The notes: generated by a model from the sequence alone, not told the origin. A DNA stretch of 64,000 nucleotides from an uncultured Gemmatimonadales bacterium (GCA_963771275.1 CAVYSW010000011.1:79123-143122), one strand, 5' to 3'; counted from the first letter of the stretch, positions 13,301-46,714 are shown. Numbers and translations are program-made.

Positions 13301-13541
13301 CCGCGTTGGTGGTCTTCCAGATCCCGCCGGCCACGGTCGCGACGAAGAACGTCTTGGACGGGCTGGGAATACCCTCGATATCCGTGATCCGGCCGCCCAT
13401 GTTCGCCGGGCCGACCGAGCGCCAGCGCAACGCGGACAAGGTGGCGGAATCGAGCGGAGTGGAGACTTGGGCCTGAAGCGACGAGACGCCAGCGACCAGA
13501 ACGAGCGCTGGCACGAGCCATGGGGCGCGATGACGCATCAC
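10320..13541 (-). CDS. Large secreted VPS10/sortilin-like BNR (Asp-box) repeat beta-propeller protein, putative glycosyl hydrolase
   Basis: WRSVGPANMGGRI, repeated xSxDGGxTW Asp-boxes, GGLQDNG, GGDGF, ATHGRS. Signal peptide. Confidence 0.88.
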   Translation of the reverse strand: MMRHRAPWLVPALVLVAGVSSLQAQVSTPLDSATLSALRWRSVGPANMGGRITDIEGIPSPSKTFFVATVAGGIWKTTNAGTTFRPVFDRERVVSMGDIAIAPSDTMIVWAGTGEEDSRNSISPGGGIYKSTDGGLTWTFMGLRETQQIGRIIVHPTNPDIVYVAALGHAWGPNPERGLYKTTDGGKTWQLNKFISNKAGFVDLAMDPTNPNVLFASSWERVRGPYFLNSGGPGSGLWKTTDGGTTWSEVKGGGFPETMKGRIGIAIAPSDPKVVYALTEADSGKGSKERLSGLYRSADGGATWTKMNSNDVRPFYYSQVRVDPRDANRVYWSSTPVNFSDDGGKTARNATVGIHVDHHAMWIDPNDPQHFIVGNDGGVAQTWDRGGNYDFLNAIAIGQFYHVSYNMDVPYRVCGGLQDNGSWCGPSRRARGGIDNLMWFFVNGGDGFYTAQDPNDPNIVYAESQGGSMARVDLTTGARTSLQKPDWRPRYTEYEDSVVVDWPDTAVRPSRELQRRLDDLRRRQRADSATLDMRWNWNTPFLISQHDPNVFYAGANRVLKSTKRGDNLLPISPDLTTRDTMRIRVSTRTTGGITPDATGAETHSTITALAESPLRFGLLFAGTDDGNVWLTRDDGGSWESLTGRFPGVPAKTWVTRVEPSHFDSATFYVTFDNHRENDFRPYAYVTNDFGKTFRSIANNLPSDGVDFVHVIREDPYNRDLLFLGTDVAAYVSTDRGASWQRFMEGLPTVPVHDLEIHPRDHELIAATHGRSIWIVGIAPLEQLTDAVLAKSAYLFAPRTAYQYGDVPVGGGSNGHKWFSEPSPQYGAEIAYRVAKGEARARVQLVVTGARGDTVRTIDGPGSTGLHQVVWDFRGAPAPSKPLSPAERRDSLKFIARVDQVFDSLVKAGMNQAMLDRLRESIKSGNMQALAARFGGGGGGGGGGGAGRFGAAQGFVERPGESSAGAAGRAAAQGEGAQAGGEQGAEALPGQAQMQDILRALRPPGARGGGGGFGGLSFGLYNPGRRGGGSLVETGDYLVTLTIGGETMRQTLRVERVRGGGESGFPFEEDESRQ

Positions 13542-13988
13542 GACCTCGCGTGAGTGTGGAGTGTGGACCGCGAACGGCAGACCTGCACGAGCCGTTTACG
13601 CACGCGCGCGCAGCGGCGTTGAGCCGCGGCGACCCAATCTGCCCTGCCGGGCACCCGGTCGCCACCCGGGATCGCGGGCCCCAGCCGCCCGCCCCCCTCA
13701 CGATGACGCCGGATCCCACGACTTTCTGGTCGCCAACCTACCTGAGTCATCCCGTCGCAGCTGCCACGTTTCGCTCCAGGTGGCTCGAATCAGGCCACTT
13801 GCCGTGCTGACCAGTGCATCGCTAATGCGAACTACCACAAGCACTTACGACATCACCCCAAGGGGAATGGATCGTGCGGAGTTCGGTGCGGCGCCCGCTG
13901 GGAACGAGACGAAGCCGACTCGGCGCGCCGGCGGATTGGGCTCCGGCTCACAGAACGGATCCGTGAATTCCGTACCTTGGCGTCCCCT

Positions 13989-14978
13989 ATGCAACTGCCT
14001 CATGCCGCCACCGCGAGCGCGCTGCCGCGGCCGCCACGGCCCGCGCTTCGCGCCGTGAGCACGTCGGGCCGCGCAGCGTCGGTCCCGGCCACCACCGCCT
14101 CGGCGACCCCTTCGCAGATCGCCCGTCGCGCGGTCACCGTCGGCGCGGTGCTGGTCTGGCTGGCCGTGGCCGGCACGCTGCTCGTCTGGGGCTTCCCGTA
14201 CTACATCACGCCGCTCCAGGCCCGCGCCTACTCGACCTACCACGAGCTGCTCAAGCCCTCCGGCCTGGTGGGCCAGGGGTACGGCGTGATCGGCACGCTG
14301 ATGATGGTGGTCGGCGTGACCGGCTACTCGTTGCGCCGGCGCGTCCGGTGGCTCAACCGGGCCGGCAAGCTGAAGACCTGGCTCAGCGTGCACATCTTCC
14401 TCTGCACCCTCGGCCCGTTCCTCATCGTGCTCCATACGACGCTCAAGTTCGGCGGCATCGTGTCGATCGCGTTCTGGAGCATGATCGCCGTCGTGACGAG
14501 CGGCGTGTTCGGCCGGTACGTGTACGTCCGGATCCCCAAGACGCTGAACGGCCAGTTTCTCTCGCTCCAGAGCATCGAGGAGCAGCGCGGCACCATGCTC
14601 CGCACCATCCAGGAGCGGTCCGGGCTTTCCACGGCGGAGATCGACGGGATCCTCAGGGTCGCCAAGCGGCCTGCGCCCCGCGGCTTCGCCGGCGCGCTGT
14701 TCCAGTCCCTCTGGTACGACCTGACGGCGGGCGCGCACGGCCGGAAGATCCACCGGGCACTCGCGGCCAAGGGCGTCCCACCCAAGGCGCGGGCCGTGGC
14801 GGCGACGCTGTTCCTCGACGAGGCCAACCTCGAGCATCAGGTCGCGCTGCTGACGCCGTTCCAGCGCCTGTTCAAGTACTGGCACCTGTTCCACATGCCA
14901 CTCGCCCTCGTGATGCTCGTGATCGTGCTGATCCACGTGTCCGTCGCCGTCCTGCTCGGCTACACGTGGCTGTTCTGA
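13989..14978 (+). CDS. Inner-membrane protein with His residues in hydrophobic helices (ferric-reductase/cytochrome b-like), first gene of the multiheme cluster
   Basis: Several TM helices. YSLRRR..WLSVHIFL..GPFLIVLH and FKYWHLFHMP..VLIHV. ORF 13977..14978, ATG at 13989. Confidence 0.75.
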   Translation: MQLPHAATASALPRPPRPALRAVSTSGRAASVPATTASATPSQIARRAVTVGAVLVWLAVAGTLLVWGFPYYITPLQARAYSTYHELLKPSGLVGQGYGVIGTLMMVVGVTGYSLRRRVRWLNRAGKLKTWLSVHIFLCTLGPFLIVLHTTLKFGGIVSIAFWSMIAVVTSGVFGRYVYVRIPKTLNGQFLSLQSIEEQRGTMLRTIQERSGLSTAEIDGILRVAKRPAPRGFAGALFQSLWYDLTAGAHGRKIHRALAAKGVPPKARAVAATLFLDEANLEHQVALLTPFQRLFKYWHLFHMPLALVMLVIVLIHVSVAVLLGYTWLF

Positions 14979-14986
14979 CCGGCTCG

Positions 14987-16702
14987 GTGCATCGCCCTCC
15001 GGCGACCCGACTCGCCCTCCTCATGCTGCTCGCCTTCGCGCCCACGGCACGCGCCCAGCTGCTCTCCCCCGGGAAGCTCATCGCCTCGCACGGCGACCTC
15101 GACGGCGTGCGCCACTGCACGAAGTGCCACCAGCTGGGGGAGCGCGGCGTCGCCGACGCGAAGTGCCTCGACTGCCATAAGCCGATCGCGCAGCGCATCG
15201 CCCAGAAGCAGGGCTTTCACGCCACGATCGGCAGCCGCACCTGCGGCGAGTGCCACAAGGACCACTTCGGCACCGACTTCGACGCGGTCCATTTCGACAC
15301 GGCGGGCTTCGACCACCGCGCCAAGACCGGGTTCGACCTGGCTGGGGGGCACGCGAGCACCGCCTGCCGGGACTGCCACCGGCCGGAGTACGTGGTGGAG
15401 ACCGCGGTGCGGCAGGAGGCCGGCGAGCATGGTCGCCTGGCAACGACATATCTCGGACTCGCCACGACGTGCGTCGGCTGTCACCGGAACGACGATCCCC
15501 ACGCCGGCCAGTTCCCCAATCAGGGCTGCGAGGACTGCCATGCCGAGGTGGACTGGAAGAAGCCGGACCGGTTCGACCATGCCAAGACGCGCTACCCGCT
15601 GCACGGCAAGCACGTGGACGTGGCCTGCCGCGACTGCCACACCCCGATCCCAGGCCAGAAAGGGGCGCTCAAGCTCACGGGCCTCGCGTTCGGCACCTGT
15701 GCGGCCTGTCACCAGAAGGACGATCCGCACGCAGGCCAGTTCGCCGCACGGCGGTGCGACGAGTGCCACGCCGAGACGGGCTGGAAGAGCCTCGGTCGCT
15801 TCGACCACTCGGCCACCAAGTACCCGCTCACGGGGCGTCACCTGGATGTCGAGTGCCAGAAGTGCCACACCCCACTGCCGGGACGCAGAGGAGCCATGCG
15901 GCTCACCGGCCTCGAGTTCGCGACCTGCCTGGCCTGCCACAAGAACGACGACCCGCACGGGGGGCGTCTCGGCACCGGGTGCAACGACTGCCACACGACC
16001 GCCGGCTGGCGCGCCACGGGCGGGGCCAGCTTCGAGCGCAAGTTCGATCACGCCCGCACGCGGTTCGCGCTGCACGGCAAGCACGCCACGGTCGAGTGCG
16101 CCGCGTGCCACGATCCGGCACGGCCGCGCGCCAACGACATTGCGCTGGCGTTCGTTGCGGCGACCCGCACACGCGCCTACCCGGTACCGGTGGCGGACCA
16201 GTGCACCTCGTGCCACACGGACTACCACGCCGGCGCGTTCGCCAAGAGCCCCGGCGGCCTCGCATGCACGAACTGCCACGGCGAGGACGCCTGGCTCCCC
16301 ACGGACTACGACATCGCGCGCCACAACCGCGACGCCCGTTACGAGCTGACGGGCGCGCACCGCGCCGCGCCCTGCGTCGCCTGCCACAAGAGCGCGGCCC
16401 TCGGGCAGCAGGCGCTCGTGTTCCGCATCGCCCAGCAGGACTGCCTCGCGTGCCACCGGTCCAACGACCCCCACGGCGACCAGTTCACGGGCCGGACGTG
16501 CGACTCGTGCCACGACACCCGCGCGTTCCGCATCGCCGCGTTCGACCACGCCAAGACGCGGTACCCGCTGGACGGGGCGCACCGCAACGTCGCGTGCGCC
16601 TCGTGCCACCCGTCGGTTCCGGGGCCGGATGGCAAACCCATGCGACGCTATCGGCCCCTCGGCATGACCTGCCGGGACTGCCACGAGGGAGATCGCTCAT
16701 GA
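14987..16702 (+). CDS. Periplasmic multiheme cytochrome c, 20 CxxCH motifs
   Basis: Signal peptide (…LLAFAPTARAQ) then SPGKL. 20 CxxCH counted by hand, in repeated FDH..(Y/F)xLxGxH modules. GTG start at 14987 (alternative ATG 15023). Confidence 0.92.
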   Translation: MHRPPATRLALLMLLAFAPTARAQLLSPGKLIASHGDLDGVRHCTKCHQLGERGVADAKCLDCHKPIAQRIAQKQGFHATIGSRTCGECHKDHFGTDFDAVHFDTAGFDHRAKTGFDLAGGHASTACRDCHRPEYVVETAVRQEAGEHGRLATTYLGLATTCVGCHRNDDPHAGQFPNQGCEDCHAEVDWKKPDRFDHAKTRYPLHGKHVDVACRDCHTPIPGQKGALKLTGLAFGTCAACHQKDDPHAGQFAARRCDECHAETGWKSLGRFDHSATKYPLTGRHLDVECQKCHTPLPGRRGAMRLTGLEFATCLACHKNDDPHGGRLGTGCNDCHTTAGWRATGGASFERKFDHARTRFALHGKHATVECAACHDPARPRANDIALAFVAATRTRAYPVPVADQCTSCHTDYHAGAFAKSPGGLACTNCHGEDAWLPTDYDIARHNRDARYELTGAHRAAPCVACHKSAALGQQALVFRIAQQDCLACHRSNDPHGDQFTGRTCDSCHDTRAFRIAAFDHAKTRYPLDGAHRNVACASCHPSVPGPDGKPMRRYRPLGMTCRDCHEGDRS

Positions 16703-18054
16703 TCCGCCTCCGCAGCGCTTTCCTGCTGGCCCTCGCGGCCGGCCTCGCGCATCCCGCGGCGGCGCAGCAGAACCCGCACGGCACGCTCCCCGCCGGGCTG
16801 GACTGCAGCGACTGCCACACGTCGAAGAGCTGGAAGCCCGACCCCGCGACCGTGAAGTTCGACCACAACCGGCAGACCGGCTTCAAGCTGGTCGGCCGGC
16901 ACCGCGACGCGGCGTGCCGCTCGTGCCATCTGTCGGTGAAGTTCGACGAGGCGACGCTCAAGGGCGCGGATTGCGCCACGTGCCACGCCGACGTGCACCG
17001 CGGGGCGTACACCGAGCGGTGCGAGAGCTGCCACACGACCGTGAGCTTCGCGGACGTGCCCGGGCTGCAGGTCCACGCGCGGACCACGTTCCCGCTGACC
17101 GGGGCACACGCGCAGATCGCCTGCCGCGCCTGTCACGTGGACGACCGGGACGGCGCGTTCACGCCGCTCGATCCCCAGTGCATCTCGTGCCACCGCGCGG
17201 ACTACGAGCGCGCCAGCCCGGTGAACCACGTGGCGGCGAACTACCCGACCGACTGCACGCGCTGCCACGTCACGGTCGCCTGGCCGGCGCACGTGAACTT
17301 CGATCACGTCTCCCTGTCGAACGGGTTCCGGCTGATCGGCGCGCACGCGCGCATCCGCTGCACCAGCTGCCACGCCACGGCGGACATGACCCCGCTGTTC
17401 CCGGGAGCCAAGGACCAGGACTGCATGACCTGTCACCAGCCGGACTACAGCCGGGCACATCCGGGGAACAGCTTCCCGCAGACCTGCCTCAGCTGCCATA
17501 CGATGGAAACGTGGGCCGGTGCGACCTTCGACCACCCCCTCGTGGCGAACGGGTTCCGGCTGCAGGGAGCACATGCGTCGCTGGCCTGTCAGGCCTGCCA
17601 CGCGGCGGACATGACGCCGCTGTTCCACCCGTCGAACGACCAGGATTGCATCACCTGCCACCAGGCGAACTACCAGGCGGCCCCGAACCACGTGACGGGG
17701 AACTACCCGCAGGCCTGTCTGCAATGCCACACCCAGATCACCTGGCAAGGGGCGACGTTCGCCCACACGCCGTCCATGACCGACTGCGTTTCGTGCCATC
17801 ACGCCGATTTCGTCGCGGCGACCTCCCCGGTGAACCACACGACGCAGGGCATCATCGAGGCCGCCTGCAGCCAGTGCCACGACAACAACGCCGGCACCTG
17901 GGCGCAAACCTCATATGTCCATGGCGACTGCTACAGCAGCACGACCAACCGGGCGCATCAGAACGCGCGTTGCTCGCAGTGTCACACCAGCGGGTATCCC
18001 GCGGCCACATGCACGGCCTGCCACCAGAACAGGTCTTCATGCCGAGACTCATGA
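16699..18054 (+). CDS. Multiheme cytochrome c, 17 CxxCH motifs
   Basis: ATGA overlap with the upstream gene. Signal peptide MIRLRSAFLLALAAGLAHPAAAQ. 17 CxxCH counted by hand. Confidence 0.92.
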   Translation: MIRLRSAFLLALAAGLAHPAAAQQNPHGTLPAGLDCSDCHTSKSWKPDPATVKFDHNRQTGFKLVGRHRDAACRSCHLSVKFDEATLKGADCATCHADVHRGAYTERCESCHTTVSFADVPGLQVHARTTFPLTGAHAQIACRACHVDDRDGAFTPLDPQCISCHRADYERASPVNHVAANYPTDCTRCHVTVAWPAHVNFDHVSLSNGFRLIGAHARIRCTSCHATADMTPLFPGAKDQDCMTCHQPDYSRAHPGNSFPQTCLSCHTMETWAGATFDHPLVANGFRLQGAHASLACQACHAADMTPLFHPSNDQDCITCHQANYQAAPNHVTGNYPQACLQCHTQITWQGATFAHTPSMTDCVSCHHADFVAATSPVNHTTQGIIEAACSQCHDNNAGTWAQTSYVHGDCYSSTTNRAHQNARCSQCHTSGYPAATCTACHQNRSSCRDS

Positions 18055-18139
18055 AGTGGTTCACTCGGGCGTGCCGTACGGCGCATACGTCGGCAATCGC
18101 CGTCAGCAGGGTCACCGCCTGGGAAGGGCGGACGGAGCG

Positions 18140-19720
18140 ATGACGGCCCGAATCTCCGGGGTGGTCGGCGCCACCCTGCTCGCGCTGGCGACGGTGGCCT
18201 CCCCGCGCGCCGCCGCGCAGCAGGGCCGCGTCGCCGTGGTGGTGGACTACATCGCCGGTGCCGACATCTACCTCGCGGCGGGGAGCGAGCAGGGTCTCGC
18301 CTCCAATGACACGCTCCTCGTCTACGAGGCCCCGGAGGGCGACCAGGTGGGGCGGTTTTTCGTGGTGAGCGCCACGGCGACCCGGGCCGTCGTCGAGTTC
18401 ATCGGCACCGCATTCCCGGTCACGCGCGGCAAGACGCTCTACGTCCAGCGCACGTCGGCGCACGCGGCCGAGCCGGCCCCGCTCGTCACCGAAGGGCCGG
18501 CGCCCGCCCGGCGGCCGGACGGGCGGTCCGCCTCGCTGCACGGGCGGCTCGCGCTCGAGGCCGACGGCTTCCAGAGCACGACGCTGTGGCAAAGCAACCA
18601 GCTCGAGTCGGAGACGCGCCAGTTCGCCACCCCGTCGCTCGGCCTCCGGGCGGTGGCGACGGACCTCCCAGGCGGGTTCAGCCTGAACACCAACCTCCGA
18701 GCCCAGTATCGCTACAGCAATCCGGCCGTGATCAACCCGGCGTGGGCCGTTCAGGTGTATCAAGCAAGCCTGGCCAAGTCGTTCACCGGCTTCCCGCTGT
18801 ACGTCGAGCTCGGCCGGTTCAGCAATCAGTACACCAACTTCAGCGGCCAATGGGACGGCCTGATGATGCGGCTCGGCGGCCGGCGGGGGTTGGGTGGCGG
18901 CTTCGCCGCCGGGTTCGAGCCCGCGAGCGGCGACCAGGGGCTCTCCACCACGCTGCCCAAGTACTCGGGGTTCCTCACGGTCGACGCCGGCGGCGGGCCG
19001 CTGCGCTACTCCACTTACCTCTCGGCAACCCAGGTGCGCCCGCGGAACGGCCTCCTGGTGCACAGCTACCTCGGGTGGTCGCAGTACCTGCGCGCGCGGC
19101 GGTTCCGGCTGAGCAGTGACGCGCAGGTCGACCGCGACCCCGAGACCAGCAAGTGGGTGGTGACGCGGTTCAACGCCACCGCGTCCATCCCGCTGGCGCG
19201 CGGCCTGGAGATCCACAGCCGCCTGTCCCGGTTCCAGCCCTACGCGTTCTGGCAGACGACGAACCTGATTTCCTACCGGCGCGACCAGGGCAACGTGGGG
19301 CTGTTCTACTTCGGCTCCGGGGGGAGCATCGGCCTCGATGTCACCGCGAACCGGTTCGCCGCGAGCGACACGACCGCGCGCGAGACGAGTTACACGTACT
19401 CAGCGTCATTCAGTCTGCTGCGGACGCCCATCCTCGGACTCGACTGGAGCGCCTCGGGGAGCTACTGGACCCAGAGCGGGAGCAAGTCGCTCTACGCCAC
19501 CGCGGGGCTCGCCCGGAGCTTCGGGCGGGTGCATTCGCGCGCGTCCTACCAGCTCTACCGCTCCCAGAGCGCCACGCTGACGTCGGTGAGCCACAGTGTG
19601 GACGCCGGCCTGTCGTTCCCGCTGGCGCGAAGCCTCTACGCGACGTTCCAGGGACGGATGCAGCGCGGCGGGGACCTCCATACCAGCGGACTGTATTTCG
19701 GTCTGTGGACGAGCTTCTGA
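18140..19720 (+). CDS. Outer-membrane beta-barrel protein (putative porin of a porin-cytochrome complex)
   Basis: Signal peptide. Many amphipathic aromatic-rich beta strands. C-terminal beta-signal LYFGLWTSF. Confidence 0.8.
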   Translation: MTARISGVVGATLLALATVASPRAAAQQGRVAVVVDYIAGADIYLAAGSEQGLASNDTLLVYEAPEGDQVGRFFVVSATATRAVVEFIGTAFPVTRGKTLYVQRTSAHAAEPAPLVTEGPAPARRPDGRSASLHGRLALEADGFQSTTLWQSNQLESETRQFATPSLGLRAVATDLPGGFSLNTNLRAQYRYSNPAVINPAWAVQVYQASLAKSFTGFPLYVELGRFSNQYTNFSGQWDGLMMRLGGRRGLGGGFAAGFEPASGDQGLSTTLPKYSGFLTVDAGGGPLRYSTYLSATQVRPRNGLLVHSYLGWSQYLRARRFRLSSDAQVDRDPETSKWVVTRFNATASIPLARGLEIHSRLSRFQPYAFWQTTNLISYRRDQGNVGLFYFGSGGSIGLDVTANRFAASDTTARETSYTYSASFSLLRTPILGLDWSASGSYWTQSGSKSLYATAGLARSFGRVHSRASYQLYRSQSATLTSVSHSVDAGLSFPLARSLYATFQGRMQRGGDLHTSGLYFGLWTSF

Positions 19721-19721
19721 C

Positions 19722-21029
19722 ATGTCGGACACGCTGCTGATCGGGGCGGTCGGCGCCGTACTCGTGCTCCTCGTCATGGTGCCGTTCTACCGCCGGCAGC
19801 GGAACCTCGAGCGCACGACCGCCGAGGCGGAGCAGCTCGCCAAGCGCTACGGGCTGAACGAGCCCCTCTCGCTCCACCCGGTGGTGGACGTCGGCGGGTG
19901 CATCGGGACGGGCAACTGCGTATCGGTCTGCCCCGAGGGCGACGTCTTGGGGTTCCGCCACGGCCAGGCCTTCGTCGTGAGCCCCGCCCGCTGCATCGGG
20001 CACGGCCTGTGCGAGCGGGCCTGCCCCACCGAGGCGATCCAGCTGGTGTTCGGATCCGCCAAGCGGGGCGTGGAGATTCCGCGGGTCAAGCAGAACTTCG
20101 AGAGCAACGTCCCCGGCCTCTACATCATCGGGGAGCTCGGCGGCATGGGGCTGATCCGCAACGCGTTCGAGCAGGGTCGTCAGTGCATCGAGGGCATCGC
20201 GCGCGAGGCCAAGGGGTCGGGCGACGCGCTCGACGTCCTGATCGTGGGCTGCGGGCCGGCAGGCCTGTCCGCGTCGTTGCACTGCCTGCACCACAGCCTC
20301 CGCTTCGCGACGCTCGAAAAGGAGGACATCGGCGGGACGGTGCGCTACTACCCGCGGAAGAAGATCGTGATGACCAGCACCGTGAAGGTGCCGGGCTACG
20401 GGAAGCTCGACTTCCGCGAGATCAGCAAGGAGGAGCTGATCGACATCTGGGAGGACATCGTCGAGCGCACCCAGCTCAAGGTGAACATCGGGGAGACGGT
20501 CACCGGCGTGGCGCGGGGATCGGACGGGTGCTTCACGGTCACCAGCGGCACCAGGACCTACAAGACGCGGCGGGTGGTGCTGGCGATCGGGCGGCGGGGC
20601 GTGCCCCGCAAGCTCGGAGTCCCGGGGGAGGAGCTTCCCAAGGTGATCTACTCGCTGCACGAGCCCGAGGCGTATCAGAAGGACCGCATCCTGGTGGTCG
20701 GCGGCGGCGACTCGGCCGTGGAGGCCGCGCTCGCGCTGTCCGACCAGCCGGGCAACGAGGTGAAGATGTCCTACCGCGGCGAGCAGTTCAGCCGCATCAA
20801 GCCGGGCAACCTCCAGCGGGTGGAAGAGGCCATCGCGCGGCGCCGCGTCGAGGTGTTGTGGCAGACGAACGTGGTCGAGATCACGCCCAAGACGGTGGTC
20901 TGCAAGAACGGCGGCGAGCCGCTGGCGCTCCCCAACGACGTCGTCGCGGTGTTCGCCGGCGGCGAGCTGCCGCTCAAGTTCCTCGAGAGCTGCGGCGTCC
21001 AGGTGGACCGGAAGTTCGGCGAGCCCTGA
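19722..21029 (+). CDS. Membrane-anchored 4Fe-4S dicluster / FAD-NAD(P)H oxidoreductase (TrxB/YpdA-like)
   Basis: N-terminal TM helix. CIGTGNCVSVCP and CIGHGLCERACP. VPGLYIIGE, DVLIVGCGPAG, VLAIG, VVGGGDSAVEAA..SYR. Confidence 0.85.
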   Translation: MSDTLLIGAVGAVLVLLVMVPFYRRQRNLERTTAEAEQLAKRYGLNEPLSLHPVVDVGGCIGTGNCVSVCPEGDVLGFRHGQAFVVSPARCIGHGLCERACPTEAIQLVFGSAKRGVEIPRVKQNFESNVPGLYIIGELGGMGLIRNAFEQGRQCIEGIAREAKGSGDALDVLIVGCGPAGLSASLHCLHHSLRFATLEKEDIGGTVRYYPRKKIVMTSTVKVPGYGKLDFREISKEELIDIWEDIVERTQLKVNIGETVTGVARGSDGCFTVTSGTRTYKTRRVVLAIGRRGVPRKLGVPGEELPKVIYSLHEPEAYQKDRILVVGGGDSAVEAALALSDQPGNEVKMSYRGEQFSRIKPGNLQRVEEAIARRRVEVLWQTNVVEITPKTVVCKNGGEPLALPNDVVAVFAGGELPLKFLESCGVQVDRKFGEP

Positions 21030-21036
21030 CCACGCG

Positions 21037-22851
21037 CTACCGGCGCGCCACCAGCAGGATCCCCTCGTAGCTCGAGATCGTCAGGCTGTCGGCCCCGCCC
21101 TGCCCGGCGATCATGCGCAGGTAGAACGCCGCCCGGCCGGCCGGCGTCTCCCGCTCGAGATGGAGCAGATCCGCAGGCAGCCCGTCGGGACCGGACCCGC
21201 CGTGCCCCGTCGCCCGCAGCGTCTGGATCAAGCTGTCGAGCGGCAGGGCCACCAGCGGTCTCGCGTCGTCGTAGACCACGAGCGCCAGCCCGCCGCGCGC
21301 CGGGGCTACCCGGAAGCCGGCGCCCGGGGTGAGCGAGTCGAAGCGCCCGCGCGTGACGGAGAACACCGCGTCGTAGCCGGCGACCGGGATCGCGACGTTC
21401 TTGAGGTCCGACCCATAGCGGAACTCCATGTTGGGCCCCGGCATCGCCCAGCGGCTCACGTAGCCCACGTTGAGCGCCCGGGCGATGAGCTCCGCCCGCG
21501 CCTCGACGTCTCCCGATGCGGCCGTCCCGTGCGCGACGGTGTCGATCCGCCCGAGCGAGTCGCCAAACCACGGCGCGATCGCCCCGGTGCCATGGGTTTC
21601 CACGAGGTACCGCAGGACGGCAGAGATCTCGCGCCGGTCGGCTTCGGACGGCTGGGCCTCCGCCCGGTGAGCCGTTCCCGCCACCATCACGCCGTTCCGC
21701 TCGAGCAGGGCCGCCAGCCGCCCCACCTGGCTCGACTCGGACACCCGGTAGGCACTCCACGGGCCGAACAGCGTGAGCACGGCGACGGCACAGAGCGACG
21801 CGGGTATCACCTTGATGTTCCGGGACCGCGTGAGCAGCGCGTGCACCGCGATGCCGGCGAGCCAGAGCGACAGCACGCTGAGGAAGTAGCGTGGCTCCGT
21901 GATGCCGTACTGCTGGACGCGCTGCCAGATGGCAACCCACAGCATCGCGATCGCCGGCAGCAGGGCCAGGTAGAATCCGCGCGCGTAAACCGCCACCCAG
22001 CGATTCGCGGCCTCGCCCGCCACGGGATGGACCAGCAGCAGCGAGAAGATCCCCACCGCCGCGACGCTCGAGACCAGCCACCCGATCCAGCCGCTCGGCC
22101 AGTTCCAGGTCACCACGACCTTGACCAGGTAGACGGTGAGAATCACGAGGTAGACGGCGACGATCGGGAGCAGGGCGTACTGCGTGAACGCCTTGATGCC
22201 GGCGGGGTAGCCGTGCGACGCGTCGAGCGCCCCAAAGTCGCGCGGCACGCCACCCAGGAAGAACCACGTGTTGAACACGAAGCCGAGCACGAACCACAGG
22301 CGCAGGTAGCCGGTCCCCGGCACGCCCACGCCGAACAGCTTGTCGATCGCCGCGAGCGCGATCGCCGCACCGGCGTACAGCACGACCGTGTACAGCGCGC
22401 TCACGATCGCGCGCTCCAGTAGCGTGCGGTTGTATTGCCAGAATCCGTTGCGCTCGGCCCGGCCCACGTACGGCAGGAACGCGACCAGCAGGTGGCAGGC
22501 CGCGCTCGCCTGCACGTAGCGCCCGAACCGGACGGGCTCCGACCAGTGACCCCAGGCCACCGCGAACCACGCCAGCAGCCCGATCGCCGCCAGGCTCACG
22601 ACCCCGTTCGGCACGCGCCCCCACGCGCGGCGCTCGCCGGCGAGCGCCAGGGCCACGAACAGCGGGATGCCGAGCGTCGCCACGGCCAGCAGCCGGACGT
22701 TCTGCTCGGGGTCGCCGAGCTCGTCGGGGATCCGGATCGCGAAGACCGCCGACACGGTCGCGGCCAGCAGCACGAGCGGAAAGCGCAGCAGCGCCTCGCG
22801 CGCCCCCCGCACGATCGGCTCCAGCGTCGGCAGCACACCACGCAGTGTCAT
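21037..22851 (-). CDS. DUF4153-like multi-pass membrane protein
   Basis: RFP N-terminus, FWQYN, IDKLF, RVQQYGITEPRY, GPWSA..VS..SQ..RL. About 10 TM helices. Confidence 0.8.
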   Translation of the reverse strand: MTLRGVLPTLEPIVRGAREALLRFPLVLLAATVSAVFAIRIPDELGDPEQNVRLLAVATLGIPLFVALALAGERRAWGRVPNGVVSLAAIGLLAWFAVAWGHWSEPVRFGRYVQASAACHLLVAFLPYVGRAERNGFWQYNRTLLERAIVSALYTVVLYAGAAIALAAIDKLFGVGVPGTGYLRLWFVLGFVFNTWFFLGGVPRDFGALDASHGYPAGIKAFTQYALLPIVAVYLVILTVYLVKVVVTWNWPSGWIGWLVSSVAAVGIFSLLLVHPVAGEAANRWVAVYARGFYLALLPAIAMLWVAIWQRVQQYGITEPRYFLSVLSLWLAGIAVHALLTRSRNIKVIPASLCAVAVLTLFGPWSAYRVSESSQVGRLAALLERNGVMVAGTAHRAEAQPSEADRREISAVLRYLVETHGTGAIAPWFGDSLGRIDTVAHGTAASGDVEARAELIARALNVGYVSRWAMPGPNMEFRYGSDLKNVAIPVAGYDAVFSVTRGRFDSLTPGAGFRVAPARGGLALVVYDDARPLVALPLDSLIQTLRATGHGGSGPDGLPADLLHLERETPAGRAAFYLRMIAGQGGADSLTISSYEGILLVARR

Positions 22852-33505: not shown

Positions 33506-33536
33506 CGGCCCACTCGCGGCACCACAGGAGGACGTG

Positions 33537-34589
33537 ATGAAAGCGATCCAGCTCACCGCCGTCGGCGCGCCGCTCGAGATCCGCGACGTGCCGGATCCTC
33601 ACCCGGCGGAGACCGACGTCCTGGTGCGGGTCGCCGGTTGCGGGGTCTGCCACACGGACATCGGCTTCTGGCAGGACGGCGTGCCCACCAAGCAGCCGCT
33701 GCCCCTCACGCTCGGGCACGAGGTCGCCGGCACGGTAGTCGAGGCCGGGGCCGCCGCCCGCCAGCTGGTCGGGCGCGACGTGATCGTGCCGGCTGTGATC
33801 CCGTGCGGCGCATGCGACTTGTGCGCCGCGGGGCGCGGCAACATCTGCCGGCGCCAGCTCATGCCGGGCAACGACATGGACGGCGGGTTCGCCGAGTACC
33901 TCGTGGTGCCGGCCCGCGGGCTGTGCCTCGTCGGGGACCGCGGGCCGTACCGCCTGGCCGACCTGTCGGTCGTGGCCGATGCCGTCACCACGCCCTACCA
34001 GGCGATCGTGCGGAGCGGCCTGCGCGCCGGCGACCTCGCGATCGTGGTGGGCCTGGGCGGCGTCGGCACCTACTGCGCGCAGATCGCCGCCGCCACGGGC
34101 GCCCATGTCGTGGCGATCGACGTGGACGACGCCAGGCTCGCCGCGATCGCCCCGCACGGCCCGGGGCTCACGCTCAACTCCGCCGCGCTCGACTTCAAGG
34201 ACGTGCGGCAACACATCCGCCAGCAGGCGAAGGCCTGGGCCTGCCCCGAGCACAGCTGGAAGATCTTCGAGTGCTCGGGGCATCCCGGTGGCCAGGAGAC
34301 GGCGTTCGGGCTCCTGACCTACGCGTCCACCCTGATGGTCATCGGCTTCACGCTCGGCAAGGTCGCGTTGCGCCTCAGCAACGCGATGGCGTTCGACGCC
34401 ACGATCCAGGGGACGTGGGGCTGCAAGCCGGAGCTCTATCCGCCGGCGCTCGCGTTGGTCACGAGCGGGAAAGTCACGCTGGCCCCGTTCATCGAACCGT
34501 TCCCCATGAGCACCGGGCCGGATGTCGTCCGCCGCGTCGCCGAGCACGCCATCACGCGCCGGGCGATCCTGGTGCCCGACTGGCATTGA
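33537..34589 (+). CDS. had: 6-hydroxycyclohex-1-ene-1-carbonyl-CoA dehydrogenase (Zn-dependent)
   Basis: GCGVCHTD, LGHE, CxxCxxC, MPGNDMDGGFA, VVADAVTTPYQA, KIFECSG, RLSNAMAFDA, WGC.PELYP. Gene context. Confidence 0.9.
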   Translation: MKAIQLTAVGAPLEIRDVPDPHPAETDVLVRVAGCGVCHTDIGFWQDGVPTKQPLPLTLGHEVAGTVVEAGAAARQLVGRDVIVPAVIPCGACDLCAAGRGNICRRQLMPGNDMDGGFAEYLVVPARGLCLVGDRGPYRLADLSVVADAVTTPYQAIVRSGLRAGDLAIVVGLGGVGTYCAQIAAATGAHVVAIDVDDARLAAIAPHGPGLTLNSAALDFKDVRQHIRQQAKAWACPEHSWKIFECSGHPGGQETAFGLLTYASTLMVIGFTLGKVALRLSNAMAFDATIQGTWGCKPELYPPALALVTSGKVTLAPFIEPFPMSTGPDVVRRVAEHAITRRAILVPDWH

Positions 34590-34602
34590 GAGGGACACCC
34601 CG

Positions 34603-35694
34603 ATGCTGAAGAGCCACACGCTGGTACCCGACGTCGCGTTTCGGGATATCCAATACGCGCTGCGCCCGGTGCGGGACCCGCAGGGGAAGCCCGTCTCCGG
34701 CCTGCACAATGCCTGGATCATCCTGAACAACCCCCAGCAGCTCAACAGCTACACCACCGACACCGTGAAGGAAGTGATTCTCGCGTTCCGGCAGGCCAGC
34801 ATGGACCGGAGCGTCGTGTGCTGCGTGTTCACGGCGGTCGGGGATCAGGCGTTCTGCACCGGTGGCAACACCAAGGAGTACGCCGAGTACTACGCGGGGA
34901 ATCCGCAGGAGTACAAGCAGTACATGCGGCTCTTCAACGACATGATCGACGCGATCATGCGGTGCGACAAGCCGGTGCTGAACCGGGTGAACGGGATGCG
35001 CGTCGCGGGCGGCCAGGAAATCGGCATGGCCTGCGACTTCACCATCGCGGCCGACACCGCGCGGTTCGGTCAGGCCGGTCCCAAGCACGGCTCGGCCCCC
35101 GACGGCGGCTCGACCGATTTCCTGCCGCTCTACGTCGGCTTCGCCGCCGCGATGGAGAGCGGCGTGCTGTGCGACATGTGGAGCGCCCACAAGGCGCTGT
35201 ACCTCGGGCTGATCAACCAGGTCGTGCCGGTGCTCAAGGTGGACGGTCAGTGGATCCCGAATCCGATGGTGGTGATCGACCGCTTCGCGGACCCATTCGG
35301 CCACATCGTGTTCGGCGACTTCAAGACCGGCCCCGAGCGCGACGCCGCGAAGGCAGTGCTCGCGCGGGCGGAGACGGACCTGAGCCGGCTGGACGAGGCG
35401 GTCGAGGCGCTCTGCACCGAGCTGCTCATGCTCATGCCCGACTGCGTCTCGAAGACGGTGAACAGCCTGCGGAAGCACAAGCAGCGGCACTGGGACGACA
35501 CGAACGTGACCAACCGGGAGTGGCTCGGCCTGAACATGATGACGGAAGGGAAGGCGGGATTCCGCGCGTTCAACGAGGGTCCCAAGGGGAAGCGCGAGGT
35601 GGATTTCATCAAGCTGCGGCAGCTCCTGGCCGCGGGCCACCCGTGGGATGACGAGCTGATCCGGGCGATCTCGCCGCAGTATCAGGAGGACTGA
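34603..35694 (+). CDS. oah: 6-oxocyclohex-1-ene-1-carbonyl-CoA hydrolase (ring-opening; Oah/BzdY/BamA)
   Basis: NNPQQLNSYTT, AFCTGGNTKEYAEYYAG, RVNGMRVAGGQEIGMACD, QAGPKHGSAP, WLGLNMMTEG. Confidence 0.93.
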   Translation: MLKSHTLVPDVAFRDIQYALRPVRDPQGKPVSGLHNAWIILNNPQQLNSYTTDTVKEVILAFRQASMDRSVVCCVFTAVGDQAFCTGGNTKEYAEYYAGNPQEYKQYMRLFNDMIDAIMRCDKPVLNRVNGMRVAGGQEIGMACDFTIAADTARFGQAGPKHGSAPDGGSTDFLPLYVGFAAAMESGVLCDMWSAHKALYLGLINQVVPVLKVDGQWIPNPMVVIDRFADPFGHIVFGDFKTGPERDAAKAVLARAETDLSRLDEAVEALCTELLMLMPDCVSKTVNSLRKHKQRHWDDTNVTNREWLGLNMMTEGKAGFRAFNEGPKGKREVDFIKLRQLLAAGHPWDDELIRAISPQYQED

Positions 35695-35700
35695 GCTCCC

Positions 35701-36450
35701 ATGGACCTGGGCCTCAAGGAGAAGCGCGCCATCGTGACCGGCGGCAGCGTCGGGATCGGGGCGGCGATCGCGCTGACCCTGGCGCGCGAAGGCTGCGACG
35801 TGGCGATCACCTACCGGCGCCACGACACCGAAGCGAACGCCGTCGTTGCCAAGATCGGGGCCCTCGGCCGCCGGGGGCTCGCCGTGAAGGCCGACGTCGC
35901 GAGCTACGCCGACGCGCAGCGCATGGTCGAGACCGTGGTGGCGGCGTTCGGGCGTCTGGACATCATGGTGTGCAACGCGGGCGTCAATTGGGACGGCGTG
36001 ATCTGGAAGATGACCGAGGAGCAGTGGGACACGGTCATCAACGTGAACCTCAAGGGCTACTTCAACTACAACAAGGCCGCCGCGCTGGTGTTCAAGGACC
36101 AGAAGAGCGGCAAGATCGTCAACATCTCCTCGATCAACGGCCTGCGGGGGAAGTTCGCCCAGACCAACTACGCGGCCTCCAAGGGCGGCGAGATCGCCCT
36201 GAGCAAGTCGCTCGCCCGGGAGCTGGGGAAGTTCAACGTGAACGTCAACGTCGTCGCTCCCGGCATGGTCATGACCGAGATGGCGGAGCACATCCCGCCC
36301 GAGTTCCTGACCAAGGCGATGGACGAGACCGCCCTGGGGCGGTTCGCCACCGCCGAGGAGTGCGCGGATCTGGTCGCGTTTCTCTGCTCGGACCGCGCGC
36401 GCCACATCACGGGAGAAGTGGTCAAGATCGACGGCGGCCAGTACATGTAG
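35701..36450 (+). CDS. SDR family 3-oxoacyl/3-hydroxyacyl-CoA oxidoreductase (FabG-like)
   Basis: TGGSVGIG, CNAG, NISS, YAASK, VAPG, ITGEVVKIDGG. Confidence 0.88.
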   Translation: MDLGLKEKRAIVTGGSVGIGAAIALTLAREGCDVAITYRRHDTEANAVVAKIGALGRRGLAVKADVASYADAQRMVETVVAAFGRLDIMVCNAGVNWDGVIWKMTEEQWDTVINVNLKGYFNYNKAAALVFKDQKSGKIVNISSINGLRGKFAQTNYAASKGGEIALSKSLARELGKFNVNVNVVAPGMVMTEMAEHIPPEFLTKAMDETALGRFATAEECADLVAFLCSDRARHITGEVVKIDGGQYM

Positions 36451-36468
36451 ACGGGATGCGAAACCGCG

Positions 36469-37623
36469 ATGACTAGAGTGGGGATCATCGGCCTCGGACA
36501 CGGGGTGTTCGGCCGGCGCAGCGATGCGACGGTCCAGGAGCTGGCCTGCGAGGCGTTCCGCGAAGCGCTGGAGGACGCCGGGATCGATCGAAGCGCGATC
36601 GACGCGTCCGTGATCGGCGCCGTCCCCGAGTACCACAAGCAGCGCTCCCTGGCCGGCGTGGTGCAGGAGTACCTCGGGCTCGTGCCGAAGCCGACCTGGC
36701 TCACCGAGGTGGCGTGCGCCTCGGGCAGCGCCGCCATCCGGACGGCGTGGATGGCGATCCGGTCCGGCCTGCACGACGTGGTCGCGGTGATCGGCTGCCA
36801 GAAGATGACCGAGCTGTCCACCCCGGAGATCCTCGCCCTGATGGGACGCGTGGGCGAGGTGCAGTGGGAGTCGGGCTTCGGCACGACGTTCCCCGGCTAC
36901 TACGCCATGTTCGCCAAGCGGCACATGCACGAGTTCGGCACCACGCGCGAGCAGCTGCTCGAGGTCGCCGTGAAGAACCACTACTACGGCGCGAAGAACC
37001 CCCGGGCCCTGTTTCGCAAGGAGGTCACCCGGGAGAAGGCCGCGGCGTCCGAGGACGTGGCCACGCCGCTCCAGGTGTATGACTGCTGCGCCAACGCGGA
37101 CGGGGCCGCCTGCGTGATCCTGGCGAGCGAGCCGCGCGCCAGGGCGCTCTCCACGCACCCGGTATGGCTGTCCGGGATGGGGTGTGCCACCGCCAGCATG
37201 TCGGTGCTGCGGCGGCCAAGTCTCGTGGGGCTCCCCAGCGCCGAGCTGGCCGCGGCGCAGGCGTACGCGATGGCGGGGATCGGCCCGCGCGACGTCAAAG
37301 TGGCGGACGTACACGACTGCTTCACGGTCGCCGAGATCATGGCCTACGAAGACCTGGGGTTCTGCAAGAAGGGCGAGGGCGGCCCGTTCGTGGCTGCGCG
37401 GCAGAGCTACATCGGCGGGACCGTGGCGGTGAACGTGGACGGCGGGCTCAAGGCCAAGGGCCACCCGATCGGCGCCACGGGCGTGTCGATGACGTACGAG
37501 ATCGCCAAGCAGCTACGCGGCGAGGCGGGAGAGCGCCAGGTGCCCGACGCCGACATCGGCCTCACGCACAACGTCGGGGGGATCGGTCAGTACTGCTTCG
37601 TCCAGGTCCTCACGAGGGATTGA
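36469..37623 (+). CDS. SCP2/archaeal-type thiolase
   Basis: EVACASGS, DCCANADGAA, VHDCF, KGHPIGATG, HNVGG. Confidence 0.88.
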   Translation: MTRVGIIGLGHGVFGRRSDATVQELACEAFREALEDAGIDRSAIDASVIGAVPEYHKQRSLAGVVQEYLGLVPKPTWLTEVACASGSAAIRTAWMAIRSGLHDVVAVIGCQKMTELSTPEILALMGRVGEVQWESGFGTTFPGYYAMFAKRHMHEFGTTREQLLEVAVKNHYYGAKNPRALFRKEVTREKAAASEDVATPLQVYDCCANADGAACVILASEPRARALSTHPVWLSGMGCATASMSVLRRPSLVGLPSAELAAAQAYAMAGIGPRDVKVADVHDCFTVAEIMAYEDLGFCKKGEGGPFVAARQSYIGGTVAVNVDGGLKAKGHPIGATGVSMTYEIAKQLRGEAGERQVPDADIGLTHNVGGIGQYCFVQVLTRD

Positions 37624-37626
37624 GCC

Positions 37627-38079
37627 ATGTTCAAGTGGTTCGGCAAGGTCAACTTCACGCCGTACACGAAGGTCGGGGACTTCGCCCGTCACCTGCGGGA
37701 CGGCCGGCTCATGGGCTCGCGGTGCACGCGGTGCGGGGCGACCGCGTTCCCCCCGCGGGCCGACTGCGACGCCTGCCTGAGCGGCGCCTTCGAGTTCGTC
37801 GAAGTGAGCGGCCGGGCGACCCTCACCACCTATACCAAGATCGTGGCGGCCCCGACCGGCTTCGAGGATCTTGCCCCGTACATCATCGGGGTCGTCGATC
37901 TCGCGGAGGGCGGGCGGGCGCTCGCGTGGTTCGGCGAGACCATCCCCGAGGAGGACATCGCGATCGGGATGGCGCTGCAGCTGGTTCCGCGGATGTTCGA
38001 GGAGCTGGAGGAGATCAAGGTTTACTACAGTCTGGAGCGGCCCGGCACCACATGGTCGAAAGCGGCGCAGCCGGCGTGA
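37627..38079 (+). CDS. DUF35 Zn-ribbon/OB-fold protein (thiolase partner)
   Basis: CTRCG..FPPR..CDAC; PYIIGVVDL.EG. Confidence 0.88.
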   Translation: MFKWFGKVNFTPYTKVGDFARHLRDGRLMGSRCTRCGATAFPPRADCDACLSGAFEFVEVSGRATLTTYTKIVAAPTGFEDLAPYIIGVVDLAEGGRALAWFGETIPEEDIAIGMALQLVPRMFEELEEIKVYYSLERPGTTWSKAAQPA

Positions 38080-38161
38080 GCCGGCCTGGACCGCGCATCC
38101 CACCGTCCACGCCGACGTGATCCCAGGGGAAGGCCAGGGGCGAATTGACGAGGGTACGCGA

Positions 38162-38920
38162 ATGAGCCTAAAGGTGACAAGCGAAGACGGGATTGGCACG
38201 CTCACGTTGAGCCATCCGCCGCTCAACATCCTGACGCGGGAGCTGCTGCGGGAGCTGCGCGAGGCGCTCGAGCGGCTGGCCGCGGAGCAGGGGCTCCGGG
38301 TCGTGCTGCTCCGGGCCGAGGGAAAGCACTTCTCGGCGGGCGCGGACGTGGGCGAGCACCTGCCTCCGGCGTTCGAGCAGCTCATCCCCGAGTTCATGCG
38401 GACGATCGCCGCGCTGCGCGACTTCCCGCTGCCGGTGGTGGCGGCGGTGCGCGGCCGCTGCCTGGGCGGCGGGTTCGAGCTGGTACAGGGGGCGGACATC
38501 CTCGTGGCCGGCGACGGCGCGAGCTTCGGCCAGCCCGAGATCATGCTTGGCGTGATTCCGCCGGCGGCCTGCCCGCTGCTCCCCATGCTGTGCGCGCCGG
38601 GCCGCGCGGCGGAGATCGTGCTCACCGGCGATCCGCTCACGGCGGCCGACGCCGAGCGGGCGGGCCTGGTCGCCAAGCGGGTACCGGACGACCGGGTCGA
38701 GGACGAGGCGCTTGCGCTGTGCCGTCGGATCAGCCGGCACAGCGCGGCGGCCCTGCGCGTCGCCAAGCGGGCGCTCCGCAGCGGCGAAGCCGCCACGCGC
38801 CCCGCCGCGTTCGCGGCGGCCGAGCGGCTCTACCTCCACGACCTGATGGGGACGGCGGACGCGCGCGAGGGGCTCACGGCCTTCCTCGAGAAGCGCCAGC
38901 CGTCGTGGACCCACCGATGA
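38162..38920 (+). CDS. dch: Cyclohexa-1,5-diene-1-carbonyl-CoA hydratase (enoyl-CoA hydratase family)
   Basis: PPLNIL, HFSAGADVGEH, CLGGGFEL, GQPEIMLGV, LYLHDLM.T.DA.EGL.AF.EKR. Immediately upstream of bcrC. Confidence 0.82.
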   Translation: MSLKVTSEDGIGTLTLSHPPLNILTRELLRELREALERLAAEQGLRVVLLRAEGKHFSAGADVGEHLPPAFEQLIPEFMRTIAALRDFPLPVVAAVRGRCLGGGFELVQGADILVAGDGASFGQPEIMLGVIPPAACPLLPMLCAPGRAAEIVLTGDPLTAADAERAGLVAKRVPDDRVEDEALALCRRISRHSAAALRVAKRALRSGEAATRPAAFAAAERLYLHDLMGTADAREGLTAFLEKRQPSWTHR

Positions 38921-40086: not shown

Positions 40087-40099
40087 GGCGGAGTCCCCC

Positions 40100-41398: not shown

Positions 41399-41421
41399 AC
41401 GACCGCTCACAGGGGAGCCCC

Positions 41422-43049: not shown

Positions 43050-43123
43050 GACCCCTCCGAGCGGGGTCGCGTCACGGATGCCCCGCGGCGAGCGCTGAGA
43101 CCGCGGAGCAGGAGATCACGCCC

Positions 43124-43444: not shown

Positions 43445-43453
43445 GCCACGGCG

Positions 43454-44533: not shown

Positions 44534-44698
44534 GCGTTCTCCCTCGCCGTCGCGAGGCCGAAAGTTGTAGGGAAGAGCGCTCCGCCGCGAGGGCCGGCCC
44601 GGGGCCCCGGCCGGCCGCGTTGTGGGCCGCCAGCCCGGAGCGCATCTTTGTGCGGGGACAGCGGGGTGTGCCCGCCCATGAGGAAGGAGACGTCACCC

Positions 44699-45403: not shown

Positions 45404-45410
45404 GGACGCC

Positions 45411-46652: not shown

Positions 46653-46714
46653 CGGGCACCTGTGCCCGACCGCCGTGACGAGCTGCCGGGTCAGCAGCAG
46701 GAGGAATGCACGTC

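Follow-up and report, generated by a model that had tools for sequence, protein, structure and literature searches.

Within a 64,000-nucleotide stretch of genome from an uncultured Gemmatimonadales bacterium (GCA_963771275.1 CAVYSW010000011.1:79123-143122; the whole stretch is called the window below), five genes at 13989..21029, here g1 to g5, encode an inner-membrane protein (IMP), two multiheme cytochromes, a predicted outer-membrane beta-barrel and a ferredoxin-flavoprotein. By sequence homology the operon is a PCC3, a predicted type of porin-cytochrome conduit that has been described with four genes. That four-gene part is known and is ordinary here; what has been overlooked is the fifth component, the flavoprotein, which may invert the accepted model. 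The flavoprotein occurs together with the IMP, lies beside it in several gene orders and is in places fused to it, and we favour, at slightly better than even odds (about 0.55), the reading that the five genes form a PCC3 conduit entered from cytoplasmic NAD(P)H, probably NADPH. The pairing of IMP and flavoenzyme suggests that electrons enter the wire from the cytoplasm rather than from respiration. The five genes are as follows.

g1, 13989..14978, plus strand: PCC3-type IMP of 329 amino acids with 10 His and five transmembrane (TM) helices (from hydropathy and a model with a predicted local distance difference test score, pLDDT, of 92)
g2, 14987..16702, plus strand: 571 amino acids with 20 CxxCH motifs, as two hemes and six three-heme repeats; ortholog of the PCC3 'periplasmic' cytochrome
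g3, 16699..18054, plus strand: 451 amino acids with 17 CxxCH motifs in three-heme repeats; homolog of the variable-length PCC3 'extracellular' cytochrome
g4, 18140..19720, plus strand: 526 amino acids with a terminal Phe; modelled 22-strand beta-barrel with a small N-terminal beta domain and a flexible linker
g5, 19722..21029, plus strand: 435 amino acids; TM anchor, two-cluster ferredoxin and a circularly permuted FAD/NAD(P)H oxidoreductase of the Bdr/YpdA/thioredoxin reductase (TrxR) fold

The operon and its homology to PCC3

The five open reading frames (ORFs) are spaced by 8, -4, 85 and 1 bp, and each is single-copy in the host genome (3.86 Mb, 96.7% complete). A sequence-only reading had taken them for a close-packed, co-oriented set comprising a His-rich inner-membrane protein, secreted 20-heme and 17-heme cytochromes, a beta-barrel ending in Phe and a TM-anchored ferredoxin and FAD/NAD(P)H protein, and this description survives: the ORF calls return the same gaps, g1 has its 10 His and five hydrophobic helices, the CxxCH motifs of g2 and g3 number 20 and 17 (37 in total), the g4 model closes with 22 strands and a terminal Phe, and g5 comprises an N-terminal TM helix followed by Fer4 and Pyr_redox_3 domains. 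The signal peptides of g2 to g4 were called by eye. Since the other ORFs of at least 120 amino acids in the window hold at most one CxxCH (two of them, one each), the richness of g2 and g3 in this motif is not due to chance. Nor is the operon an assembly artefact, because a single contig from an independent peat run covers 13400-17661 and 18215-21200, differing solely at the end of g3. Genes for a BNR/sortilin-repeat protein and a DUF4153 protein flank the operon on the opposite strand; a sigma-70-like promoter and a terminator were looked for at the operon and none was found.

The IMPs of PCC3 and PCC4 have been defined by two WX3HX13H motifs and an SGXXG motif (He et al., 2017, PMC5566968, in the passages on these proteins), and g1 carries all three (W131-x3-H135-x13-H149, S171-G-x-x-G175 and W298-x3-H302-x13-H316). 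Both WX3HX13H motifs occur in 126 of 131 g1 homologs, and the four motif histidines are invariant in the 86 homologs that were aligned. A g1 profile was searched against 400 genomes from the class of one genome (G061), probably Gammaproteobacteria in the wide sense, and matched at least 64 of them, a lower bound because six candidates were scored per genome. We fetched 40 loci from 39 of these 64 genomes. The g1 profile matches the IMPs of the proteobacterial PCC3-type loci at E 1e-26 to 1e-43, and 37 of the 40 loci (one cut by a contig end) have the PCC3 order of IMP, 21- or 24-heme g2 ortholog, variable g3 homolog where reached, and long porin. The proteobacterial 21/24-heme proteins are matched by g2 at E 1e-61 to 4e-101 and the variable cytochromes by g3 at E 1e-5 to 5e-31. 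Heme counts of the fetched loci agree with those given in passages on Gallionellaceae PCC3 (21, 24 or 27, and 10-35; PMC10734462), and of five proteobacterial PCC3-type porins scanned, all carry TPR and four carry SPOR; the PCC3 porins of strain ES-1 are annotated in kind, Slit_0867 as 'sporulation domain' and Slit_1449 as 'TPR region' (PMC12016527, in part). What ties the operon to PCC3 is the motifs, the order of the genes, the numbers of hemes, the SPOR/TPR porins and a likeness, judged by eye, between Slit_1446 peptides and the fetched IMPs.

The barrel appears to be a remote homolog of the proteobacterial PCC3 porin barrels. Aligned with hhalign, the g4 profile reached 19 such porins directly with a probability of 74% (E 2.9e-5); with six intermediate barrels as a bridge, the probability was 94.8% (E 4.9e-8). 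Five controls, shuffled or reversed, gave E 0.14-0.31. The g4 model (pLDDT 92) has 22 barrel strands, counted manually from DSSP elements; 22 strands are also given for the PCC3 porin of L. cholodnii. Its best fold matches are 22-strand TonB-dependent barrels (Z 17.2, root-mean-square deviation (rmsd) 4.0, 370 residues aligned), with usher barrels at Z 14.6 and MtrB at Z 13.2. Foldseek with the barrel returned generic porin and usher matches, mostly at rmsd 9-18 A, from which no family was assigned, Pfam and NCBIfam gave no family for g4, and the ESM Atlas gave unnamed clusters alone; FlgT_C weakly matches three of 19 scanned barrels (E 0.015-0.023).

The window operon therefore has the PCC3 features, namely an IMP of about 300 amino acids with five TM helices and the motifs, a cytochrome of about 21 hemes with few amino acids per heme, a variable, repeat-rich cytochrome and a porin-homologous barrel. 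The suspected likeness to PCC3 proves, by the motifs, the g2 and g3 matches and the g4 profile comparison, to be real homology, and as all four components are homologous the architecture was already known. In many relatives (L020:4400-5017, L095:10876-11517, L109, L110 and others) a gene for a TM and TPR protein, absent from the window, is inserted between g1 and g2; its product might replace the TPR domain found in the proteobacterial porins, or might have a CcmI-like role. Two Rubricoccaceae loci also insert a monoheme Haem_bd gene between g1 and g2.

Both cytochromes are densely packed with heme, at 28.6 (g2) and 26.5 (g3) amino acids per heme. Outside the CxxCH motifs g2 has 26 His, enough to bis-His ligate all of its hemes, and g3 has 21; 35% of g3 is T/S/A/G. 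Such compositions would fit wires without a catalytic heme. NrfB was the sole match of g2 among PDB sequences (E 0.0025). Orthologs of g2 mostly have 17, 20, 23 or 26 hemes among the relatives of this operon and 21 or 24 in the proteobacteria, and the non-g2 multiheme ORFs of related loci hold from 6 to 64 CxxCH; a near-fixed number in g2 and a freely variable one in g3 would be expected of a g2 that bridges a set distance and a g3 that is unconstrained outside. The g3 signal peptide, called by eye, has no lipobox, and one was flagged in 1 of 85 scanned segments of related loci (18 of the 85 being internal g2 matches).

The length of g3 varies even between strains, as a close strain (peat run X2) has 399 other bases in place of the 553 at window 17661-18215, at the end of g3. 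The outer module of g3 and g4 also duplicates independently: a same-genus genome has a second g3-g4 pair, with 29 hemes, directly after g5 (L019:1-2933, G003:C31), and another locus (L071) carries a second g3. Long stop-to-stop ORFs over g3 in L026 and L029, considered as cytochrome-barrel fusions, were ruled out as upstream read-through before the true start.

Linkage of the flavoprotein to the inner-membrane protein

Among solved structures, Bdr (7a7b) is the nearest relative of g5 (E 2e-48), and as the C-terminal segment of Bdr aligns to g5 123-138, ahead of the first Rossmann motif, g5 is circularly permuted. A CxxC redox disulfide is absent from the flavin part in all 88 g5 orthologs. In the second Rossmann motif, GxGxxA and R352 are invariant (86/86); a GxGxxA pattern with an arginine is read as a preference for NADPH, and g5 probably shares it. 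In the ferredoxin part, the second ligand position of cluster 1 is variable (C/T/S/I in 39/26/12/9 sequences); at the corresponding position of cluster 2, all 86 have His.

Across 61 related genomes, g1 and g5 occur together in the same 17 and neither occurs in the other 44, although the g5 profile was built from those loci and kin among the genomes are not independent. This is not a general effect of heme-rich genomes, because a control gene, the NapC-type 21-heme gene of the host, is distributed differently (12 of the 61 genomes, five of them among the 17). On the g1 contig g5 was found in 14 of the 17, as the last gene of the operon in three, divergent upstream in seven and convergent downstream in four; in the remaining three the contig ends first. 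A scan of named genomes (Gemmatimonadota, Rhodothermales, Balneolales, Ignavibacteriales and Saprospiraceae), from which the best 80 of 495 relatives were kept, found all five genes together in 43 of the 44 loci with at least 9 kb 3' of g1; the 36 loci with less than 9 kb downstream were set aside, and five of these are complete regardless.

The sample of 400 genomes, searched for g5 with four candidates scored per genome, gives the same picture. A g5 ortholog is present in 41 of 44 strong-IMP genomes (E <1e-22, G061 excluded), in 1 of 19 weak-IMP genomes (one of these rows being G102, an unpublished genome) and in 2 of 336 without an IMP match. In 28 of the 37 proteobacterial PCC3-type loci, g5 is divergent and adjoins the IMP, so that the flavoprotein is not peculiar to the window operon; the operon itself is an ordinary PCC3 and not a conduit type of its own. 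Across the loci g5 remains next to the cluster, whether co-oriented, divergent or convergent.

Fusions tie the two proteins together more directly. Among 120 long g5 homologs, 29 are single-chain fusions with a complete IMP, two have part of an IMP and hemes, 62 have at least three CxxCH without an IMP, and 27 have neither IMP nor hemes. The g5-IMP fusions include records named Deltaproteobacteria, Gemmatimonadales and Planctomycetes Pla163. The 62 chains of g5 and cytochrome were dropped as evidence because some may be signal-peptide read-through, and three 'long IMP' matches (P0271-P0273), which look frameshifted or mis-started, were left out of the fusion count. More distant IMPs have NAD(P)H flavoenzymes with Fe-S clusters as partners as well: some pair with a cyclic-nucleotide-binding (cNMP) TrxR-Fer4 protein of about 800 amino acids (3/3 scanned; 11 of the 19 weak-hit genomes), others with an FNR-2Fe2S protein of a different fold (3/3 scanned). 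Complex prediction for g1 with g5 scored 0.39, against 0.00 for the best control, with contact agreement between runs of at least 85% and partner pLDDT of at least 72, which lends weak support to docking of the two. The same mark was passed by 116 of 157 solved pairs and by 2 of 215 mismatched ones, but no more than 18 of those solved pairs, with both mismatched ones, lie at or below 0.60. Conservation of the flavoprotein and the IMP next to the cytochromes, on which the sequence-only reading had staked its case, was thus found in co-occurrence, in adjacency in several orders and in fusions.

Several variants of the pairing deserve mention. Plasmid pEMTOL02 of the cultured Emticicia oligotrophica DSM 17448 bears the complete cassette along with a ccsA of its own (EMTOL_RS21085-21110). 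In L121 and L190-L192, an IMP subfamily stands with the cNMP-binding TrxR-Fer4 protein of about 800 amino acids and a 9-10-heme cytochrome, which suggests cyclic-nucleotide control of electron export. Chains of about 965 amino acids (P0329-P0367, two of them named Bryobacteraceae) combine FHA domains, six hemes and TM segments with a C-terminal g5-type flavoprotein, possibly a signalling-linked version. On plasmid pAM1A3 of Alteromonas macleodii (L120:5974-9457), a distant triad of reductase, IMP and 7-heme cytochrome lies directly upstream of hydrogenase genes, apparently at the orf1/cyt position of the A. macleodii hyn operon, whose Orf1 and Cyt were described as dispensable for hydrogenase activity in Escherichia coli (PMC3102683, in part). 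Plasmids of Methylophaga and Spirosoma (L118, L122) have comparable triads within their copper-resistance regions.

Route and direction of electron flow

In g1, the His pairs H135/H149 and H302/H316 lie on TM3 and TM5 at the 13-residue spacing that a ferric reductase-like TM domain requires, and the protein is predicted to hold two b hemes. A helical insert of about 120 amino acids between TM4 and TM5 would be cytoplasmic by the positive-inside rule. Fold matches to the g1 model are all weak and do not separate a ferric-reductase type from a cytochrome b type: the top match is E. coli superoxide oxidase (Z 8.4, rmsd 3.2, 133 aligned), the designed 4D2 (Z 7.8) and cytochrome b6 (Z 6.7) are among the others, none of which stands out, and STEAP4 (Z 7.1, rmsd 4.6, 149 aligned) falls in the range usual for helical bundles, with unrelated bundles alongside. 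Foldseek with the model found nothing at E 0.001 or better, Pfam and NCBIfam gave DUF4405 alone, below threshold, and the IMP profile returned coiled-coil noise alone from PDB sequences. Pfam Ni_hydr_CYTB is weakly matched by six of the 86 IMPs, and Ferric_reduct (PF01794) is not among the matches listed for them (25 of 26 families).

We propose that g5 would accept hydride from cytoplasmic NAD(P)H, probably NADPH, onto its FAD and send the electrons on one at a time, via its two Fe-S clusters, to the g1 heme on the cytoplasmic side; the second b heme of g1 would hand them to the periplasmic 20-heme wire, g2, and the g4 barrel, together with the variable-length g3, would carry them to or past the outer membrane. 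The overall logic would be that of NOX and MsrQ-Fre coupled to a multiheme wire. Electrons leaving NADPH for the outside would move down the redox gradient, with the membrane potential drawing them along, so that thermodynamics would favour this direction. Such flow would dissipate the potential and leave a proton inside, and would therefore conserve no energy; as it spends membrane potential, it would likely serve to vent surplus reductant or to reduce metals, humics or oxidants outside the cell, and not to conserve energy by respiration, which would make the system a redox valve or a surface reductase. Export fits the patchy spread of the cassette, the Emticicia plasmid copy with its ccsA, a separate multiheme island in the host that looks quinol-linked (see below), and the lower, not higher, expression of ES-1 PCC3 genes on Fe(II) (PMC8788666, in part). 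We extend this to PCC3 at large only tentatively, at odds clearly below even: PCC3 might be not an iron-oxidation or respiratory conduit but an 'NADPH oxidase with a wire', widespread and made of five parts, that exports electrons from the cytoplasm over both membranes, bypassing the quinone pool, and acts as a redox valve or surface reductase, and its hosts would then include aerobic heterotrophs never suspected of extracellular electron transfer.

A number of observations weigh against a conduit fed from NAD(P)H. A g5 ortholog was not found in 3 of the 44 strong-IMP genomes, and g5 is missing from the fetched stretch in nine of the 37 PCC3-type loci (8-18 kb off on the same contig in four, on another contig in three, no ortholog in two). 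PCC3 can occur without an adjacent g5, as Slit_1446-1449 of ES-1 have an HD phosphohydrolase (Slit_1445) and an aldolase (Slit_1450) as neighbours, not a flavoprotein. The weak fold matches of g1 include quinone-reactive cytochromes b (superoxide oxidase and cytochrome b6), g3 lacks a lipid anchor, the g4 barrel is smaller than that of MtrB, which we take to have 26 strands, and in the model the N-terminal domain of g4 could occupy the lumen. TrxR-fold ferredoxin-NADP reductases, moreover, run either way, and one PCC3 IMP gene of Sideroxydans CL21 rose on iron oxidation (bioRxiv 2025.02.27.639646, in part).

In the model of He et al. (PMC5566968, in the passages that propose it), the IMP is a quinone-reactive cytochrome b that ties the wire to the quinone pool in either direction, and g5 would then be an accessory, for example a second input or an enzyme of redox poise or maturation. 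Superoxide oxidase as the top g1 fold match, the weak Ni_hydr_CYTB matches, the ES-1 PCC3 without an adjacent flavoprotein and the binding of ubiquinone by MsrQ (PMC12525009, in part) all agree with this. However, it leaves aside the near one-to-one co-occurrence of g1 and g5 with its 29 fusions, the repeated pairing of IMPs with NAD(P)H enzymes of two folds and the separate NapC-type and cytochrome b-fused multiheme modules that the host genome already has, and we consider it unlikely. The same chain might also run inward, from outside donors to FAD and on to NADP+ or, as in Bdr/YpdA, to a low-molecular-weight disulfide. For donors of the Fe(II) type, flow to NADP+ would oppose both the redox gap and the membrane potential, and the hosts include Emticicia oligotrophica, which we take to be a heterotroph. 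That the closest solved relative of g5 is a bacillithiol disulfide reductase, that PCC3 is common in iron oxidisers (passages in PMC10734462 and PMC13386937) and that the CL21 gene rose all speak for import; given these points and, on the other side, the fall of ES-1 PCC3 expression on Fe(II), we judge inward flow decidedly unlikely.

It is also conceivable that no electrons pass the barrel, and that g5 and g1 charge g2 and g3 as a periplasmic reductant store or reductase while g4 secretes or anchors g3 or admits substrate. Triads of IMP, reductase and cytochrome without an annotated porin alongside (Table 6 of He et al., in part, and the plasmids above) would be explained in this way, as would a g3 without a lipobox and a g4 no closer to MtrB than to TonB-dependent and usher barrels. 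The adjacency of g3 and g4, which move and duplicate jointly (L019, L069, L085), and a heme number that is free in g3 alone and near-fixed in g2 argue otherwise, and we hold this explanation, like the quinone model, to be unlikely. What stands of the idea of a conduit linking pyridine nucleotides to the outside is thus its PCC3 homology and the link of flavoprotein to IMP; its novelty as a type, and a flavoprotein peculiar to this operon, do not.

The second, larger multiheme island of the host genome (G000:C3:272000-304000; L035, L036) encodes a NapC-type 21-heme protein, a cytochrome b-fused 11-heme protein, 19-heme and 4- to 9-heme proteins, a probable barrel and ccm genes, besides a pair that by eye resembles NrfC/NrfD. 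Scanned for motifs, the host genome showed one heme-copper oxidase subunit I, CcmF and CcmC; the cbb3, bd and NosZ patterns had no match, the patterns used being too crude to establish absence. Elsewhere in the window, a cluster of CoA-metabolism genes at 33534-48445 includes, by eye, subunits resembling those of benzoyl-CoA reductase and a gene similar to that for indolepyruvate oxidoreductase, a hint that aromatic compounds may be degraded anaerobically.

Significance and comparison with known systems

The four-gene PCC3 cluster has been in print since 2017 and, as far as passages of PMC13386937 and PMC11429942 tell, is a prediction without experimental test in the literature to 2026. We found no paper that names an NAD(P)H flavoprotein as a PCC3 component in a search confined to papers that need no subscription, and Supplementary Figure 4 and the body of Table 4 of He et al. 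might show such domains. The terms 'Flavoprotein', 'pyridine' and 'FAD' do not occur in He et al. (2017), nor 'oxidoreductase' or 'flavo' in the CL21 preprint; the Ferrigenium preprint has no PCC passage, and PMC13013709 applies the name 'PCC3' to Geobacter-type conduits. Surveys of iron oxidisers cite PCC3 as a candidate iron oxidase, on the quinone-coupled model. Should an NADPH flavoenzyme be its true partner, both the direction of flow and what it is for are probably opposite to those assumed, and PCC3 would be unfit as a marker of iron oxidation; a porin-cytochrome conduit wired straight to cytoplasmic pyridine nucleotides would also be useful for coupling metabolism to electrodes. The claim is testable in the cultured Emticicia oligotrophica DSM 17448 and with the natural g5-IMP fusions, which offer single-chain enzymes for assay.

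The operon resembles PCC3 as described (ES-1 Slit_0867-0870 and Slit_1446-1449; passages in He et al., 2017, PMC5566968, and Hoover et al., 2023, PMC10734462) in its four homologous components and its 27-29 amino acids per heme. It differs in having the flavoprotein within the operon, a component not named in those passages, in a g4 that lacks the SPOR/TPR extension of the proteobacterial porins (526 amino acids against about 690-820), and in its range of hosts (Gemmatimonadota, Rhodothermales, Balneolales, Ignavibacteriales and Bacteroidota), those of He et al. being mostly Proteobacteria. PCC4 and the porin-less clusters of multiheme cytochrome, IMP and other redox protein, as far as the same paper's passages describe them, likewise place a two-HX13H IMP beside a multiheme cytochrome and a redox protein. 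The 'other redox proteins' of its section 16 and Supplementary Table 6 (three of 412-425 and three of 796-805 amino acids) are near g5 and its cNMP-bearing relatives in size, a comparison by length alone; the passages neither call them NAD(P)H flavoenzymes nor propose them as the electron source. Cytochromes of those clusters mostly have 4-10 hemes, and one has 18, unlike g2 and g3, and in place of the PCC4 set of three periplasmic cytochromes with 4, 5 and 10 hemes there are two here, with 20 and 17.

With MtrCAB-CymA of Shewanella and Pcc of Geobacter the operon shares a barrel and two multiheme cytochromes, presumably as an outer-membrane conduit, but it has a 22-strand barrel, no lipoprotein cytochrome and no CymA/NapC in the operon, and scores of 40 and 30 bits against the decaheme DmsE/MtrA family TIGR03508 (cut-off 192) place it outside MtrCAB/MtoAB. 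The flavoprotein has the FAD/NADPH fold without a CxxC disulfide of Bdr/YpdA and of TrxR-type ferredoxin-NADP reductases, but is permuted, TM-anchored and fused to a ferredoxin with an invariant His in its second cluster motif. With a score of 160 bits against the YpdA family TIGR04018, below the curated cut-off of 340, g5 lies outside the soluble, single-domain YpdA/Bdr family.

Closest in logic are NOX, STEAP and MsrQ-Fre, in which a cytoplasmic NAD(P)H flavoenzyme, fused or separate, feeds one or more membrane hemes and electrons exit the cytoplasm. Here the donor has a ferredoxin-TrxR fold in place of the FNR fold and the acceptor is a 37-heme chain with a barrel; no homology linking g1 to Ferric_reduct was found. 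MsrQ receives its electrons from a cytosolic NADH oxidoreductase, the ubiquinone that it binds has been argued to be an acceptor (PMC12525009, in part), and it offers the nearest studied analogy to the pair formed by g1 and g5.

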